Part shown: piece after piece, positions 3,475 to 32,000 of the stretch
Position numbering within the stretch: the stretch's first letter is position 1
Layout of the letters: every line of letters begins with the position of its first letter
Source: Sinorhizobium meliloti
GTDB lineage: Bacteria > Pseudomonadota > Alphaproteobacteria > Rhizobiales > Rhizobiaceae
Assembly: GCF_017876815.1 (NCBI RefSeq)
Contig: NZ_JAGIOS010000001.1
Location: forward strand, 2,730,001-2,762,000
Reading direction: 5' to 3'
Length of the DNA: 32,000 nucleotides
Notes under the pieces: model-generated
The model's input: only the letters and a program-made list of their open reading frames with translations
Databases searched by the model: none
Told to the model about the DNA's origin: nothing
Position numbers and translations under genes: made by a program

Positions 3475-4575
3475 ATGCTGATCTGGCTTGTGGAACTGGC
3501 GGACCACTTTCAATTCTTCAATCTCTTTCGCTACATCACCTTCCGTACGGGGGCGGCTCTCTTTACCTCTGCCTTGATCGTGTTCCTGTTCGGCCCCGCC
3601 ATGATCGCCTCGTTGCGCATCCGCCAGGGCAAGGGCCAGCCGATCCGCGCCGACGGCCCCCAGACGCACTTCAAGAAGGCCGGTACGCCGACCATGGGCG
3701 GGTTGATGATCCTGACCGGCATCGTGGTGTCGTCGCTGCTCTGGGCCGATCTGTCCAGCATCTACGTCGTATCGACGCTTCTGGTGACGCTCGGTTTCGG
3801 CGCGATAGGCTTCTACGACGACTATCTCAAGGTGACGAAACAGTCGGAAAAGGGCTTCTCCGGCAAGGCACGACTCGGCATCGAGTTCGTGATCGCCGCC
3901 GTTGCCGTCTTCTTCATGATGCAGGCGGCGCTTTCCGCAGGGGCGGCGGGTTCCACCTTCGGCTCGTCGGTGACCTTTCCCTTCTTCAAGGACCTGATGC
4001 TCAATCTCGGATATTTCTTCGTGCTGTTCGGCGGGTTCGTCATCGTCGGCGCGGGAAATTCGGTAAACCTGACCGACGGCCTCGACGGGCTCGCGATCGT
4101 TCCCGTCATGATCGCGTCGGCCGCATTCGGGCTGATCGCCTATCTTGCGGGTAACGCCGTCTTCGCCAATTACCTGCAGATCCATTTCGTGCCCGGCACC
4201 GGCGAACTCGCGGTGATCCTTGGCGCCGTGATCGGCGCGGGACTCGGCTTCCTGTGGTTCAACGCACCGCCTGCCGCGATTTTCATGGGCGATACGGGTT
4301 CGCTTGCGCTCGGCGGCCTGATTGGCACCGTGGCCGTCGCGACCAAGCACGAGATCGTCATGATCATCATCGGCGGGCTCTTCGTCATCGAGACGCTGTC
4401 GGTGATCATCCAGGTCTTCTGGTTCAAGCGCACCGGGCATCGCGTGTTCCTGATGGCGCCGATCCACCATCACTTCGAGAAGAAGGGCTGGACGGAAAGC
4501 CAGGTGGTGATCCGTTTCTGGATCATCGCAGTGATCCTCGCAATGGTCGGCCTCTCCACGCTGAAGCTGCGGTGA
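3475..4575 (+). CDS. mraY: Phospho-N-acetylmuramoyl-pentapeptide transferase
   Basis: Polytopic membrane protein with the [13 protein letters not shown] and PIHHHFE motifs. ATG 3475 ([12 protein letters not shown]...) has GGGGGAAAGG 7 nt upstream, so the upstream extension from 3439 is unlikely. Confidence 0.94.
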
Positions 4576-4581
4576 GCCACG

Positions 4582-5973
4582 ATGATCCCGGTCACCTCAT
4601 TCAAGGGCAGGAAGGTCGCACTCTTCGGGCTAGGCGGCTCGGGCCTCGCTACGGCTCAGGCACTCGTTTCGGGCGGCGCAGATGTCGTGGCGTGGGACGA
4701 CAATCCTGACAGCGTCGCCAAGGCTGCCGCGGCCGGAATAGCCACCGCTGATTTGCGCGGCGCCGACTGGCATGCCTTCGCCGCCTTCGTGCTTTCGCCC
4801 GGCGTTCCGCTGACGCATCCGAAGCCGCACTGGAGCGTCGATCTCGCGCATCAGGCCGGCGTCGAGATCATCGGGGATGTGGAGCTCTTCGTGCGTGAGC
4901 GGCGCAAACACGCGCCCGATTGCCCCTTCATCGCCATCACCGGCACCAACGGCAAGTCCACGACGACGGCGCTGATCGCCCATATCCTCAGGACAAGCGG
5001 GCGCGACACGCAGCTCGGCGGCAATATCGGCACCGCGGTGCTGACGCTGGACCCGCCGAAAGCAGGGCGCTTCTATGTCGTCGAATGCTCATCCTACCAG
5101 ATCGACCTTGCGCCAACGCTCGACCCGACCGCCGGGATACTGCTCAACCTGACGCCGGATCACCTGGATCGCCACGGCACGATGCAGCACTATGCGGACA
5201 TCAAGGAGCGTCTGGTGGCGGGGAGCGGAACGGCGGTGGTCGGCGTCGACGACAGCCTCTCGAGCCTGATCGCCGACCGGGTGGAGCGGGCAGGAACAAA
5301 GGTCGTGCGTATCTCGCGCCGCCACCCTCTTGCCGAAGGCATCTATGCCGAAGGCTCGGCGCTGATGCGTGCGCAGGACGGGGCATCGTCGCTCTTTACC
5401 GATCTCGCCGGGATCCAGACGCTGCGCGGAGGGCACAATGCCCAGAATGCTGCGGCTGCGATCGCCGCCTGCCTGGCGGTCGGCATCTCCGGGAAGGATA
5501 TCGTCGACGGCCTCAGGAGCTTTCCGGGCCTCAAGCACCGGATGCAGCCGGTTGCGAAAAAGGGAGAGGTCGTCTTCGTCAACGACAGCAAGGCGACCAA
5601 TGCAGAGGCTGCAGCCCCGGCGCTTTCGAGTTACGACCGAATCTACTGGATCGCCGGCGGTCTGCCGAAGGAGGGCGGCATCACGTCACTGGCGCCGTTC
5701 TTCCCGAAGATCGTCAAGGCCTATCTGATCGGAGAGGCGGCCCCCTCCTTCGCCGCGACACTCGGCGAGGCAGTGCCCTACGAAATCTCCGGGACGTTGG
5801 AAAAGGCGGTTGCGCACGCGGCAGCGGATGCGGCGCGGGACTCGCAAGGTCCGGCGGCCGTGATGCTTTCTCCGGCTTGCGCAAGCTTCGACCAGTACAA
5901 GAACTTCGAGGTGCGCGGAGATGCCTTCGTCGGCCATGTGGCGGCGCTCGAGGGCGTGAGCATGCTGATCTGA
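4582..5973 (+). CDS. murD: UDP-N-acetylmuramoylalanine--D-glutamate ligase
   Basis: N-terminal Rossmann motif GLGGSG, P-loop [10 protein letters not shown], dcw synteny. Confidence 0.95.
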
Positions 5974-8313: not shown

Positions 8314-9725
8314 AGATGCCGAAGACGATCGGGCTCGTACATTTCATTGGTATCGGCGGCATCGGCATGAGCGGTATTGCCGAAGTCCTGCACAATCTCG
8401 GCCATCGCGTCCAGGGTTCCGACCAGGCCGACAGCGCCAATGTGCAGCGTCTGCGGGAAAAGGGCATCAGCATCTCCATCGGGCACAAAGCGGAAAATCT
8501 CGGCGATGCCGAGGTGGTCGTCGTCTCGACGGCGATCAAGAAGGACAATCCCGAGCTCATCGCTGCGCGCGAGAAATTCCTGCCGGTCGTGCGCCGGGCC
8601 GAGATGCTTGCCGAGCTGATGCGCTTCCGAAATGCAATTGCGATCGGCGGGACCCACGGCAAGACGACGACGACCTCGATGGTCGCCGCCCTGCTCGATG
8701 CGGGCGGCCTCGATCCGACCGTGATCAACGGCGGCATCATCAACGCCTACGGCACCAATGCGCGCATGGGCGCCGGCGAATGGATGGTGGTCGAAGCGGA
8801 CGAATCCGACGGCACGTTCCTGAAGCTGCCGGCCGACATCGCGGTCGTCACCAATATCGATCCCGAACATCTCGACCACTACGGCAGTTTCGACGCCGTG
8901 CGCGCCGCCTTCCGGCAGTTCGTCGAGAACGTGCCCTTTTACGGATTTGGCGTGCTGTGTCTCGACCATCCGGAAGTCCAGTCCATGGTCGGCAAGATCG
9001 AGGACCGGAAGGTCGTCACCTACGGCGAGAACCCCCAGGCCGACGTGCGCTTCCACAATATCCGCATGGACGGTGCGACCTCCATCTTCGATATCGAGAT
9101 CCGCCGCCGCCGCACGGGCCAGGTGATCGAGATCAAGGATCTCAGGCTGCCGATGCCCGGACGCCATAATGTCTCGAACGCCACGGCTGCCGTAGCGGTC
9201 GCACAGCGGCTCGGCATCAAGCCCGAGGACATAGCGAGAGGTCTTGCCACCTTTGGCGGCGTCAAGCGCCGCTTCACGCTGACGGGCGAATGGAACGGCG
9301 CGCGCATCTTCGACGATTACGGCCACCACCCGGTCGAGATCAGGGCAGTCCTGAGGGCGGCGCGGGAGGCGTGCCAGGGGCGCATCGTCGCGGTCCACCA
9401 GCCGCATCGCTATTCGCGCCTGTCGAGCCTCTTCGAGGACTTCACCTCCTGCTTCAACGACGCCGATACGATCCTGCTCGCTCCGGTCTATGCGGCCGGC
9501 GAGGAAGCCATAGAGGGCGTCAGTTCGGAAGCGCTTGTCGACCGCATCAAGGCTGCCGGCCATCGCGATGCCCGCCACGTCCCCGGACAGGAGGCACTGG
9601 CGCCTGTTATCGCGAAGATTGCGCAGCCGGGCGATTTTGTGGTTCTCTTGGGAGCTGGCAGCATTACCTATTGGGCCGCGGCCTTGCCCAAGCAGCTCGC
9701 GGAAATTTCAGGAAATCGAGCATGA
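8310..9725 (+). CDS. murC: UDP-N-acetylmuramate--L-alanine ligase
   Basis: [12 protein letters not shown] and [11 protein letters not shown] motifs. ATGA start/stop overlap with murG. Confidence 0.95.
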
Positions 9726-10696
9726 AACAGGTCAACGGTCAGAAACTTCTCGATTCGCTCGGAAGCGGCGTCGCTGCAATCCGCGGACGTCTCACGCCCG
9801 ATGCCCCGATGGACCGCGTCACCTGGTTTCGTGCGGGCGGCCTTGCCGAACTCATGTTCCAGCCGCACGACACCGACGACCTCGTCGCCTTCCTGAAGCT
9901 GGTGCCCGAAGAGGTGCCGGTGATGGTCGTCGGCGTGGGCTCCAACCTGCTCGTGCGCGACGGCGGTATTCCGGGCGTCGTCATCCGGCTTTCTGCGAAG
10001 GGCTTCGGCGATCTCGAACTCGCCGGTGAAAACCGCATCAAGGCGGGCGCGATCTGCCCGGACAAGAACATCGCCGCCATGGCGCTCGACCATGGCATCG
10101 GCGGCTTCTACTTCTATTACGGCATTCCCGGTTCGATCGGCGGGGCACTCCGCATGAACGCCGGCGCCAATAGCGGCGAAACCAGCGAACGCGTCGTCGA
10201 GGTCCATGCCGTCGACCGCAAGGGCAACAGGCATGTCCTGAGCAAAGCGGAGATGGGCTATGGCTACCGCCATTCCGGCGCGGCCAAGGAGCTGATTTTC
10301 ACGCATGCGATCTTCGAGGGTTATGCGGAAGACAAGACCAAGATCCGCACCGACATGGACGCCGTGCGCCAGCATCGCGAAACGGTGCAGCCGATCCGCG
10401 AGAAGACCGGCGGATCCACCTTCAAGAACCCGGACGGCCATTCGGCCTGGAAGCTGATCGACGAGGCCGGCTGCCGCGGGATGATGATCGGCAATGCCCA
10501 GATGTCGCCGCTTCACTGCAATTTCATGATCAATACCGGACAGGCGACGGGCTACGAGCTCGAATATCTCGGTGAGACCGTGCGCCAGCGGGTGATGGAG
10601 CATTCGGGCGTGAAGCTGGAATGGGAAATCAAGCGGGTCGGCAATTTCATGCCGGGCTACGAAATCAGGGAATTCCTCGGCCGCGCCACGGCCTGA
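9722..10696 (+). CDS. murB: UDP-N-acetylenolpyruvoylglucosamine reductase
   Basis: FAD-binding PCMH-type N-terminus ([12 protein letters not shown]). ATG 9722 overlaps the murC stop (ATGA). The 9290-9721 part of the ORF track is an out-of-context extension inside murC. Confidence 0.93.
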
Positions 10697-29505: not shown

Positions 29506-31341
29506 CTATCGCACGATTGCTTCCGTAGCACTGGCCAGCCAGTCTCTCGTTTCCGTGCCCGACAGCAGCGGCATCAGCTTTTCCAGCGTTTCCGCGTGGT
29601 AGGCGTTCAGCCAGTCAAGCTCGTCGTCGGTCAGCAGGGCGGGAAGGACGAGCCGGCGATCGATCGGGCAGAAGGTCAGCGTGTCGAAGCCGAGCATAGG
29701 CTGGTCGCCGCCCTCGATCTCCTCCGGCTCGCGCACGACGACGAGATTCTCGATGCGGATGCCGAAGGCGCCGGGGCGATAGTAACCGGGTTCGTTGGAA
29801 AGGATCATGCCGGGCAGCAATTCCTGCGTGGCAAGCCGGGCAATGCGCTGCGGTCCTTCGTGGACCGAGAGATAGGAGCCGACACCGTGGCCGGTCCCGT
29901 GCGCATAATCGGCGCCCGCCTTCCATAGCGCGATCCGGGCGAGCGGATCGAGGTCGACGCCGCGTGACCCCTTCGGGAAGCGCGCCGTGCTGATTGCGAT
30001 CATGCCCTTGAGCACGAGCGTGAAGAACCGCTTCTGTTCTTCCGGCACCGCGCCGATCGCGACCGTGCGGGTGATGTCGGTCGTACCGTTGATGTATTGC
30101 GCGCCGGAGTCGATCAGGAACATGGTACCGGCCTCGATCCGCCGGTCGGTTTCGTTCGTGACCCGATAATGCATGATCGCGGCATGCGAACCGGCGCCGG
30201 CGATCGTGTCGAAAGAAACGTCCTTCAGGGGGTTCTGCATGCGCTCGCCGACGGCCGCGCGCGTCGCCTCCAATTGCCTGGTTGCGCCGATTTCGGTGAC
30301 GCTGCCGGGCTCCCTCCCGTCCAGCCAGGCGAGGAACTCGACCATCGCCGCACCATCCTGCAGGTGCGCCCGGGTCGATCCGGCGATCTCGGCTGCATTC
30401 TTGCAGGCGCGGGGCAGGCGGGCGGGATCGACCGCCTCGACCACCGAACCTTCCTTCCTGCGAATCAGCTCGCCGATCGCGAAGGGGGCGAGATCCGGAT
30501 CGATCATGATGGCTGCGCCGGTTGAGGCGAGGGCGGCGAGCCGATCGTCGAAGCTCGCGGGCGCCATTATGTCGGCGAGCTGGGTCAGGTAGGCTTCCTG
30601 CTCGATGCCGGTCTTGCGTTTGTCGAGGAAAAGCTCGGCGCTGCCGTCCGCATGGATGATGGCGCGCGCCAGCGGGTGCGGCGTGTGCGGCACGTCACTG
30701 CCACGGATGTTGAAGGTCCAGGCGACGGAGGAGGGATCCGTGAGAACGACGGCGGCGGCCTTCGCCTTTGCCACGCCCGCCGCGATCTCCGCGATCTTGT
30801 CTTTCGCCAATTGCCCCGCATGCTCGACCGGCTGGATCGTCACCGGGCCGAGCGGCGTTGCGGGACGGTCGGTCCAGAGCCGGTCGAGCGGATTGTGGTC
30901 GAGAAGGACGACACTGCCGCCGATCGCGGCAAGCGCCTTTTCGAGCCGGCGAACTTCCGCCGCGGTGTGTAGCCAAGGATCGATGCCGAGGCGGAAGCCC
31001 TTGGGTCCATGGCGCTCCAGCCAGACATGCGGCGGTTCGCCGATGAGATCGCCGCCGGTGAAGACGCTGCCGTCCACCTGCTCCTTGAGCTGGGTTACAT
31101 AACGGCCGTCGACGAAGACGATCGCTTCGCGCTGGGTCACGAGCGCTACCCCGGCCGAACCGGTAAAGCCCGTCAGCCACGACAGCCGCTCGGAACTGCG
31201 GGGCACATATTCCCCTTGAAATTCGTCGGCACGCGGCACGAGGAAGCCATCGACGCCCAAGGTTGCGAGGGCGGCACGCAGGGCGGTGGTTCTCTCCTTG
31301 CCGAACTGGGGCGTGGAGGTGACTTCGAAGGATTGGAACAT
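29506..31341 (-). CDS. Xaa-Pro aminopeptidase (aminopeptidase P family, peptidase M24B, long form)
   Basis: 611 aa. The C-terminal pita-bread domain carries the metal-ligand motifs HGTGHGVG and SNEPGYY, and a creatinase/prolidase-type N-terminal domain is present. GGGAAAG lies before ATG 31341. Confidence 0.9.
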   Translation of the reverse strand: MFQSFEVTSTPQFGKERTTALRAALATLGVDGFLVPRADEFQGEYVPRSSERLSWLTGFTGSAGVALVTQREAIVFVDGRYVTQLKEQVDGSVFTGGDLIGEPPHVWLERHGPKGFRLGIDPWLHTAAEVRRLEKALAAIGGSVVLLDHNPLDRLWTDRPATPLGPVTIQPVEHAGQLAKDKIAEIAAGVAKAKAAAVVLTDPSSVAWTFNIRGSDVPHTPHPLARAIIHADGSAELFLDKRKTGIEQEAYLTQLADIMAPASFDDRLAALASTGAAIMIDPDLAPFAIGELIRRKEGSVVEAVDPARLPRACKNAAEIAGSTRAHLQDGAAMVEFLAWLDGREPGSVTEIGATRQLEATRAAVGERMQNPLKDVSFDTIAGAGSHAAIMHYRVTNETDRRIEAGTMFLIDSGAQYINGTTDITRTVAIGAVPEEQKRFFTLVLKGMIAISTARFPKGSRGVDLDPLARIALWKAGADYAHGTGHGVGSYLSVHEGPQRIARLATQELLPGMILSNEPGYYRPGAFGIRIENLVVVREPEEIEGGDQPMLGFDTLTFCPIDRRLVLPALLTDDELDWLNAYHAETLEKLMPLLSGTETRDWLASATEAIVR

Positions 31342-31671
31342 GGACTTTCCCGGTAAGCTTGGCGGAGACCGCAGGTGAGATGGGCATGTTAATGCATCTC
31401 TTCCAAAAGTGGAGCAGCGGTTTTGGAATAACGACCTGCATAAAGTAACAACTTAAACTCGTTCGCGCAGGGGGGAGACGAGATTCGCCCATGAACAGCG
31501 TGTACCTCGGGTGGTGCAGGACGCGCATTTGCCCATTTGTCATACATATGCACGCGGCGCATGGCACCCATGCCGGAATGTATCTTTCTCTATCGGAATT
31601 ATGGTTTATAAGCCCGCTCAACGAACACGGACGAACGTCCGCCGGTTCAAAAGACTGCAGTTCCGAGAATA

Positions 31672-31815
31672 GTTGGTCATCTGTTCTCCTCCTCCCTCAG
31701 GGTGGCCAGCTTCGGAACGGTAGAGCCCGCTTGAGCGCTCCTCCTCCTCAAGCTCGCGGGTATGGTCGGCCAAAAGCCGGTCAGCAGGCGATGCTTCGGC
31801 ATCGCCTTTGTTTCG
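31672..31815 (+). ncRNA. Candidate trans-acting sRNA with anti-SD loops (resembles the alpha-rhizobial ar14/'cuckoo' type); the 5' end is not determined and may lie near 31615-31660
   Basis: HP1 (31672-31710) has a 12-bp stem with 3 G-U pairs and loop UUCUCCUCCUCCCU. HP2 (31726-31760) has loop GCUCCUCCUCCUCAA. HP3 (31764-31782) includes 2 G-U pairs. Terminator: AGGCGAUGC-UUCG-GCAUCGCCU plus UUGUUUCG (31786-31815). Confidence 0.6.
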
Positions 31816-31819
31816 AGAA

Positions 31820-31860
31820 GGCTGCCCCGTCATGATGGACCGGGCGGCCTTTTCGTTTTC
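31820..31860 (+). terminator. Second plus-strand intrinsic terminator in tandem
   Basis: GGCTGCCC(CG)...CGGGCGGCC stem of 8-9 bp including a U-G pair, followed by TTTTCGTTTTC. Confidence 0.55.
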
Positions 31861-32000
31861 TCGGTTCCCCTTTCGGTCGATACTCCTTCTATCGTCATCC
31901 CTGCGCTTGGCGCAGGAGGGAGGATCCAGTTCGGCGCAATAGAGCCTGTCCGGGACGGAAGTGCCTGTGGAAACAGGCGGTGTCCACGGGAAAACAAATG

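Follow-up and report, generated by a model that had tools for sequence, protein, structure and literature searches.

The stretch of DNA analysed here, hereafter the window, comprises 32,000 nucleotides (nt) of Sinorhizobium meliloti (NCBI RefSeq assembly GCF_017876815.1, contig NZ_JAGIOS010000001.1, positions 2,730,001 to 2,762,000 of the forward strand). Close to its right end lies the gene of an aminopeptidase P of 611 amino acids (aa), pepP (SMc01885), on the minus strand at 29506-31341, and the divergent spacer upstream of this gene carries a plus-strand small RNA (sRNA) that is the subject of this report. The spacer element is an S. meliloti sRNA that has already been catalogued, under the names sm26 and SmelC531, and the whole transcript, converted from the published SmelC531 coordinates, occupies 238 nt of the window at 31620-31857. 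The locus is thus a real, experimentally detected, catalogued and functionally uncharacterised sRNA, and its kinship to the cuckoo/NfeR1 class of translation-blocking RNAs looks to have gone unreported so far. What is added here is the placement of the RNA among the cuckoo types, its conserved synteny across the Rhizobiaceae, the existence of two types of locus, and a candidate regulator site.

SmelC531 is listed as a 238-nt RNA at 2321050-2321287 on the minus strand of the S. meliloti 1021 chromosome, as seen by RNA sequencing (RNA-seq), and the "putative aminopeptidase P" SMc01885 at 2321566-2323401 (Schlüter 2010, Supplementary Table S1, PMC2873474). Coordinates of strain 1021 were converted to the window as 2352907 minus the published position, and the conversion is exact at two anchors: SMc01885 falls on the pepP gene of the window, and VBISMc2955 (216 nt, 2321074-2321289) coincides base for base with the minus-strand open reading frame (ORF) at 31618-31833. 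In chromosomal position, in strand and in the genes on either side (SMc04453 and SMc01885), the spacer RNA agrees with sm26/SmelC531 of strain 1021. Schlüter 2010 (PMC2873474), in which SmelC531 was detected by 454 sequencing of complementary DNA (cDNA) from strains 1021/2011, equates it with the sm26 of Valverde 2008; the latter had been predicted in the SMc04453-SMc01885 intergenic region, gave a doublet of ~135 and ~200 nt on Northern blots, and in acid, cold, oxidative and salt stress produced small-RNA signals on microarrays (Valverde 2008, PMC2573895). An earlier note on this DNA, made from the sequence alone, had presented the sRNA as unannotated; this has to be withdrawn, since the transcript was already published both as sm26 (Northern, PMC2573895) and as SmelC531 (RNA-seq, 238 nt, PMC2873474).

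Other identities were considered and rejected. SmelC507, suggested by its size of 232 nt and its approximate position, is flanked by SMc04280 and SMc04283 rather than by pepP. RcsR1/SmelC587, the trpL attenuator RNA, maps elsewhere, at 2.576 Mb, and PmaR of Agrobacterium is restricted to that genus and lacks an anti-Shine-Dalgarno (anti-SD) seed. In a full-text literature search, SmelC531/sm26 was named only in Valverde 2008 and Schlüter 2010 and no functional study was found; the available parts of these two papers mention neither a function nor anti-SD loops nor a link to the cuckoo RNAs. The supplement of the 2013 map of transcription start sites has no entry at the locus, and Wilms 2012 and two papers on LsrB/DUF1127 contain nothing on it.

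When the region 31622-31860 is folded with RNAfold, its plus strand reaches -113.3 kcal/mol with z = -5.63, and none of 200 shuffled sequences folded as well; the minus strand of the same region attains only z = -2.41, which agrees with the claim of the earlier note that the structure favours the plus strand. The plus-strand fold is a row of six independent hairpins, SL0, SL1, SL2, SL3, T1 and T2. Those of greatest interest are SL1 (31655-31723; 69 nt, 23 base pairs, -29.6 kcal/mol, z = -4.09), with a loop of 17 nt, GUUCUCCUCCUCCCUCA, at 31683-31699, and SL2 (31725-31761; 37 nt, 10 base pairs), with a loop of 15 nt, GCUCCUCCUCCUCAA, at 31737-31751. Each of these loops displays an anti-SD motif: loop 1 contains the exact nonamer CCUCCUCCC at 31688-31696 and loop 2 the one-base variant CCUCCUCCU at 31740-31748. 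The corresponding stretches CCTCCTCCC (31688-31696) and CCTCCTCCT (31740-31748) are the sole plus-strand copies of CCTCCTCC in the 32-kb window, and the count for both strands together (3 copies, 1.3 expected) is unremarkable by itself. The remaining hairpins carry no such motif. SL0 (31623-31648, z = -1.97) forms the 5' end of the RNA, and the small SL3 (31763-31783) has 8 pairs. They are followed by two terminators in tandem: T1 (31786-31814, stem-loop 31786-31807, z = -5.06), identified as an intrinsic terminator by a terminator scan, has a GC-rich stem of 9 base pairs, a UUCG loop and a UUUGUUU tail, and T2 (31814-31860, stem-loop 31814-31855, z = -6.45) has a stem of 17 base pairs and an AUGAUG loop, after which comes the U-tract UUUUCGUUUUC.

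The ends of the published transcript can be laid over this fold. The 3' end from RNA-seq converts to 31857, in the tail of T2, and the 5' boundary of SmelC531 is one of read coverage and not a mapped primary 5' end. An RNA that ran from 31620 to the T1 tail would measure ~195 nt, so termination at T1 agrees with the ~200-nt Northern band. Internal cDNA ends were located at 31698 and 31703 (loop 1), at 31721 (the SL1-SL2 junction), and at 31732, 31742 and 31753 (SL2 and its loop); they may reflect processing, and as candidate sources of the ~135-nt species both 31721-31857 and 31620-31753 have a fitting length.

The conservation of this structure was studied in a MAFFT alignment of 35 orthologous spacers, in which pairs were counted on the window's own fold. 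Across the alignment 92.9% of the cells are paired, and RNAalifold recovers SL1, SL2, SL3, T1 and T2 with 18 pairs that show compensatory changes. Counted on the fold of the window, such changes occur at 24 of the 76 pairs, as against 5-12 in controls in which the alignment was slid by 1-3 columns, and the observed covariation score was not reached in any of 500 shuffles. The stems covary between orthologous spacers. The earlier note had described a modular, non-coding RNA of the plus strand that exposes an anti-SD motif in each of two loops and ends in tandem terminators, and this description is borne out; its coordinates for the hairpins and terminators proved correct to within a few bases, except that its first hairpin was only the inner part of the 69-nt SL1.

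The changes are unevenly spread over the hairpins. Compensatory pairs number 10 of 23 in SL1, 3 of 8 in SL3 and 7 in T2. In the stem of SL2, 8 of the 10 pairs never vary and one alternates between CG and UA with an 18/17 split. One inner pair of SL0 changes from AU to GC (17/17), in a part of the molecule where the alignment between genera is poor. None of the 35 sequences departs from the others at loop bases 31684-31698 and 31739-31747; the anti-SD loops are fixed while the stems of SL1, SL3 and T2 covary. That the strictest conservation falls on the single-stranded anti-SD loops is what is expected for seed regions.

The same alignment bears on the idea that the locus encodes a protein of 71 aa on the minus strand (31618-31833, VBISMc2955), of which the plus-strand RNA would be the antisense transcript. 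The open frame does exist, one pipeline annotated it, and Schlüter 2010 placed SmelC531 in the "cis-antisense" class only because it overlaps this predicted ORF. Between orthologs, however, the frame is interrupted by 2-11 indel runs, nearly all of lengths that are not multiples of 3, and its variable columns are distributed over codon positions 1, 2 and 3 as 21, 23 and 16, so that position 3 is not enriched. In DNA as GC-rich as this, both strands have long runs free of stop codons, and the minus strand folds less well and has no terminator. Such a protein is hardly credible, and the earlier note was right to treat the minus-strand frame, which has no coding signature, as non-coding.

The SmelC531 sRNA is widespread in the family. 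A covariance model of our own, built from 42 orthologs and extending from SL1 to T1, was run on 80 Rhizobiaceae pepP loci and found exactly one copy in 70 of them, each divergent from pepP, with scores of 33-192 bits (53-87 bits in Agrobacterium). SL2 and T1 form a universal core: T1 is kept in every homolog, and SL2 is the most conserved module across the Rhizobiaceae, Agrobacterium included. SL1 varies and is missing in two loci, SL3 is missing from some Agrobacterium homologs, and T2 is present in Sinorhizobium and Pararhizobium and not in Shinella.

Two types of locus can be distinguished. In Sinorhizobium/Ensifer, Pararhizobium, Shinella and their relatives the RNA has its own promoter, and in Agrobacterium, several Rhizobium, Ciceribacter and others it starts no more than ~20 nt from the stop codon of a conserved ORF of ~57 aa. 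A homolog directly 3' of this ORF was seen in at least 13 other loci. The ORF, MAKSFLRTAFDRVVEARERQVSRHVNAALLNLDDKSLEALGMNRADLRRKAKSSYVF, lies on the minus strand, for example at 3534-3707 of locus L051 and at 3629-3895 of L077, and is also found in L048, L049, L054, L056, L042, L071, L064, L067 and L068. It matches no Pfam or NCBIfam family, and has 176 representative relatives at E <= 0.001 in a library of 1.8 billion proteins. Its C-terminal core, LL.LDD.TL..G..R, aligns with DUF1127 in a profile-profile comparison (hhalign, 88% probability, E = 3e-6, 29 columns); an outright Pfam DUF1127 assignment was rejected, as there is no Pfam hit and only this comparison supports the distant link. 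The ORF appears to represent a family of small proteins that is not yet catalogued and that accompanies a cuckoo-like RNA. As a side observation, the database protein P0006 (96 aa, ENA) begins with a WXG100-like part (PF06013) and continues with the last 36 residues of the ~57-aa family; it is probably a chimera or a wrongly called ORF from a short contig.

The best studied RNA with comparable loops is NfeR1 (Smr14C2, SmelC397) of the alpha-r14 (ar14) family (RF02344). It represses the ntrB, gdhA and transporter mRNAs by means of anti-SD loops at the ribosome-binding site, through translation block and decay, and its three CCUCCUCCC loops are redundant to the point that only the triple loop mutant is inactive (PMC10746234; bioRxiv 10.1101/2025.11.14.688489). 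SmelC531 resembles NfeR1 and alpha-r14 in having an anti-SD motif of the CCUCCUCCC type in hairpin loops, and in combining variable stems with ultraconserved loops. It differs from them in several respects. The ar14 RNAs have three motif hairpins of which the third is the terminator, whereas in SmelC531 only SL1 and SL2 carry the motif, the terminator loops (UUCG in T1, AUGAUG in T2) are free of it, and there are the additional motif-free SL0 and SL3 and a second terminator. At ~200-238 nt SmelC531 is also longer than the ~123 nt of NfeR1/alpha-r14, and it occupies another genomic neighbourhood. At the gathering thresholds of Rfam there was no hit in the whole window, nor an ar14 hit in 15 homologous loci. 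A bridge is provided by the syntenic copy of Rhizobium sp. C4 (L077), which has CCUCCUCCC in its terminator loop as well. Against CcsR1 this copy scores 24.2 bits, and against ar14 it reaches 51.6 bits (E = 1e-8), where the gathering score is 58.8. Because this copy links it to ar14, the pepP-linked RNA may be regarded as a divergent branch of the cuckoo/ar14/CcsR group, distinct from ar14 as Rfam defines it.

The cuckoo RNAs likewise present the anti-SD motif on adjacent modular hairpins, the two-hairpin variant being the CcsR type. Those reported for S. meliloti 1021 are SmelC025, SmelC397 (NfeR1), SmelC398, SmelA075, SmelB161 and SmelA099, none with two hairpins, five with three and one with four (PMC4615179), and SmelC531 is not among these six. 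For S. medicae WSM419 one two-hairpin RNA has been reported. The matcher behind that list looks for 2-4 hairpins side by side whose loops all contain CCUCCUCCC or a permitted variant of it; hairpins may measure 24-50 nt and loops 9-27 nt, helices need 6 base pairs or more, and interruptions may not exceed 6 nt nor linkers 10 nt (Reinkensmeier & Giegerich 2015, PMC4615179). The loops (17 and 15 nt) and helices of SmelC531 lie within these limits. SL1, at 69 nt, exceeds the 50 allowed, and if only its inner hairpin of 41 nt (31671-31711) is taken, a linker of 13 nt remains where 10 are permitted; the length of SL1, the linker and the variant in loop 2 plausibly explain why SmelC531 was omitted. 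Neither the Rfam models of ar14 and CcsR1 nor the published matcher limits capture the pepP-linked branch, which current models consequently miss. The Agrobacterium/Rhizobium-type homologs, directly 3' of a DUF1127-like small ORF, recall the arrangement of ccaF1-ccsR (CIN1) (PMC8034643). The window itself differs from the CIN1 subgroup of the cuckoo family (CcsR1-4 of Rhodobacter sphaeroides) in that no DUF1127-type small ORF stands between pepP and the RNA. With AbcR1 (alpha-r15) of the Rhizobiales SmelC531 shares CU-rich seeds of the anti-SD type; the RNA bodies have no sequence or structural homology and the seed motifs differ.

Upstream of the RNA a -10 box, TATAAG, lies at 31607-31612 on the plus strand, ending 7 nt ahead of the 5' boundary from RNA-seq, and 44 loci preserve it in the form TATAA(G/A). 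At -35 the promoter is weak, with CTTTCT in the window and CTAGAC in Pararhizobium, and a generic sigma-70 scan found no promoter upstream of the sRNA. Both observations fit a weak, activator-dependent promoter of the sigma-70 type, which is what we infer. The same 44 loci, from several genera, have a strictly conserved dyad, GCATGGCACCCATGC, at 31559-31573 (-61 to -47), a candidate site for a LysR-type (LsrB/VtlR-like) activator. There is one such dyad per locus, always upstream of the -10 box of the sRNA, and its distance to that box is fixed although the sequence between them varies. Read on the minus strand, as GCAT-GGG-TG-CCA-T, the dyad matches at 31561-31573 (-59 to -47) the published LsrB/VtlR consensus GCAT-N3-TG-N3-T, which sits at -61 to -49 in the abcR1 promoter; AbcR1 is activated by LsrB/VtlR. 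A sigma-70-type promoter with an upstream LysR-type box, which in SmelC531 the dyad would supply, is also a feature of NfeR1, which requires LsrB through the bound box TGCA-N6-GCAT at -72 to -60. Since the dyad fits the consensus at an abcR1-like position and NfeR1 depends on LsrB, LsrB is a reasonable candidate activator of the sRNA.

The dyad has, in some species, a second resemblance, to a sigma-54 -24/-12 element (TGGCAC-N5-CTGC). A sigma-54 reading of TGGCAC-N5-cTGC was rejected, as neither the window nor several Sinorhizobium species keep the GC at -12.

Taken together, we consider it probable that SmelC531 is a trans-acting sRNA that occludes Shine-Dalgarno (SD) sites, with a promoter of its own and two terminators, and that it belongs to a divergent branch of the cuckoo group. 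Transcription would proceed divergently from pepP, from the weak TATAAG promoter with a 5' end near 31620, the upstream dyad probably being bound by a LysR-type activator, and some of the transcripts would end at T1 (~195 nt), the others at T2 (238 nt). Either loop would then pair with the GGAGG ribosome-binding sites of target mRNAs, block the 30S subunit and promote decay, and the targets may overlap those of NfeR1. This mode of SD occlusion has been demonstrated for NfeR1 and proposed for the CcsR RNAs. SmelC531 shows the seed of NfeR1 twice, in large invariant loops on drifting stems, and for this reason the same trans-acting occlusion is its most likely function; the NfeR1/cuckoo analogy by which the earlier note had explained its action is still a reasonable one. 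Within the cuckoo/ar14/CcsR branch the motif would have been lost from the terminator loop, and in the Sinorhizobium/Pararhizobium/Shinella lineage an own promoter would have replaced the small ORF, if the direction of the change is as we suppose.

Several facts weigh against this reading. The searchable literature yielded no target, Hfq dependence or phenotype for sm26/SmelC531. The ar14 model gives only 15.3 bits, as against its gathering score of 58.8 (E = 1.9), in an alignment at 31668-31765 of the plus strand that spans both motif hairpins, so that the formal ar14 membership entertained in the earlier note does not hold, and no CcsR1 hit (RF02791, gathering score 65.3 bits) was obtained at E <= 10 in the window. 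Loop 2 has CCUCCUCCU in place of the canonical nonamer. By itself the LsrB-box pattern is no rarity, with 4 matches across the window where 3.5 are expected, and the LsrB/VtlR box is absent upstream of the ~57-aa ORF in the Agrobacterium-type loci. The positive sm26 microarray probe of Valverde 2008 (2321429-2321478) converts to 31429-31478, some 140-190 nt upstream of the RNA-seq 5' boundary, and there may be a longer or a second plus-strand transcript in the spacer between pepP and the sRNA.

A last point of this kind is that the near-invariance of the SL2 stem and of the T1 sequence exceeds what base pairing alone requires, which hints that something further constrains them, for instance a bound protein or a signal for processing. 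Conservation beyond structural need speaks for the rival view that the RNA serves mainly to bind a protein or to act as a sponge, either titrating a DUF1127/CcaF-like protein or competing for SD-rich transcripts or NfeR1 targets. The Agrobacterium/Rhizobium-type homologs do lie directly 3' of the DUF1127-like ORF (88%, E = 3e-6), CcaF1 binds and matures the CcsR RNAs (PMC8034643), and sponge cross-talk has been reported for NfeR1 and SmelC549. But the S. meliloti locus has no DUF1127-like ORF, Pfam and NCBIfam do not class the ~57-aa ORF as DUF1127, and it is the single-stranded anti-SD loops that are the most strictly conserved. We consider a mainly protein-binding or sponge role unlikely, and retain SD occlusion by SmelC531 as the probable one.

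The neighbouring genes enter the argument at one point. PepP shares 98% identity with its counterpart in Ensifer sp. USDA 6670, and with the proteins of further Sinorhizobium/Ensifer species the identity is 84-89%. On the other side of the RNA, an ORF of 85 aa, by its position SMc04453, occupies ~32088-32345 of the plus strand in window coordinates, past the window end (4997-5254, minus strand, in the conspecific locus L081). It has a Cys/His-rich, HNH-like motif, CEVCG...HHD...CRRHH. Its Pfam hits are weak and all below threshold, and other species do not keep it beside the sRNA. Tandem terminators upstream of a co-oriented ORF that starts ~230 nt downstream could make of the RNA a cis-acting leader or attenuator, or a mere terminator cluster, for SMc04453 or for the convergent prmA, and in Agrobacterium T1 does lie ~20 nt from the prmA stop codon. 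We find this very unlikely: outside S. meliloti the RNA is conserved and neither the 85-aa ORF nor any of the region past T2 is, a discrete 238-nt species was seen by RNA-seq and bands of ~135 and ~200 nt on Northern blots, and a terminator role leaves the invariant loops unexplained.

The GGAGGGAGGA tract to which the earlier note had drawn attention is present, as it said, at 31915-31924; a significance for it is not supported. It occurs only in the conspecific loci L081-L084, is found in none of L001-L017, and is absent from other Sinorhizobium species, with no plausible start codon after it. As a built-in target of the sRNA it was rejected, not being conserved even in the closest other species, and given its restricted range and the lack of a start codon it is treated as incidental. 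A hairpin, CCTGCGC-TTG-GCGCAGG, at 31901-31924 overlaps the tract. Elsewhere in L081, a pantoate hydroxymethyltransferase at 9613-9939 is called with 108 aa as against 273 aa, probably through a frameshift or an assembly error.

A more far-reaching proposal can be put forward only tentatively, and we rather doubt than believe it in full: SmelC531 might add an overlooked seventh member to the cuckoo-type anti-SD riboregulators of S. meliloti, one that arose from a 3' untranslated region (UTR) RNA of a DUF1127-like small-protein gene, as Agrobacterium and Rhizobium would still have it beside pepP, and then became an independent gene in Sinorhizobium, Pararhizobium and Shinella. Through the promoter it acquired it would join AbcR1 and NfeR1 in the LsrB redox/symbiosis regulon, and there it could back NfeR1 up or overlap with it. 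The two locus types would, if the direction of change is true, offer a tractable case of a UTR-derived sRNA becoming an independent gene. NfeR1 has been described as the sole rhizobial sRNA with a broad symbiotic role, exerted through its redundant CCUCCUCCC loops. SmelC531, which is chromosomal, expressed, distributed throughout the Rhizobiaceae and endowed with the same seed, could share the targets of NfeR1; shared targets could mask the phenotypes of nfeR1 mutants, and SmelC531 therefore belongs in target and knockout studies.

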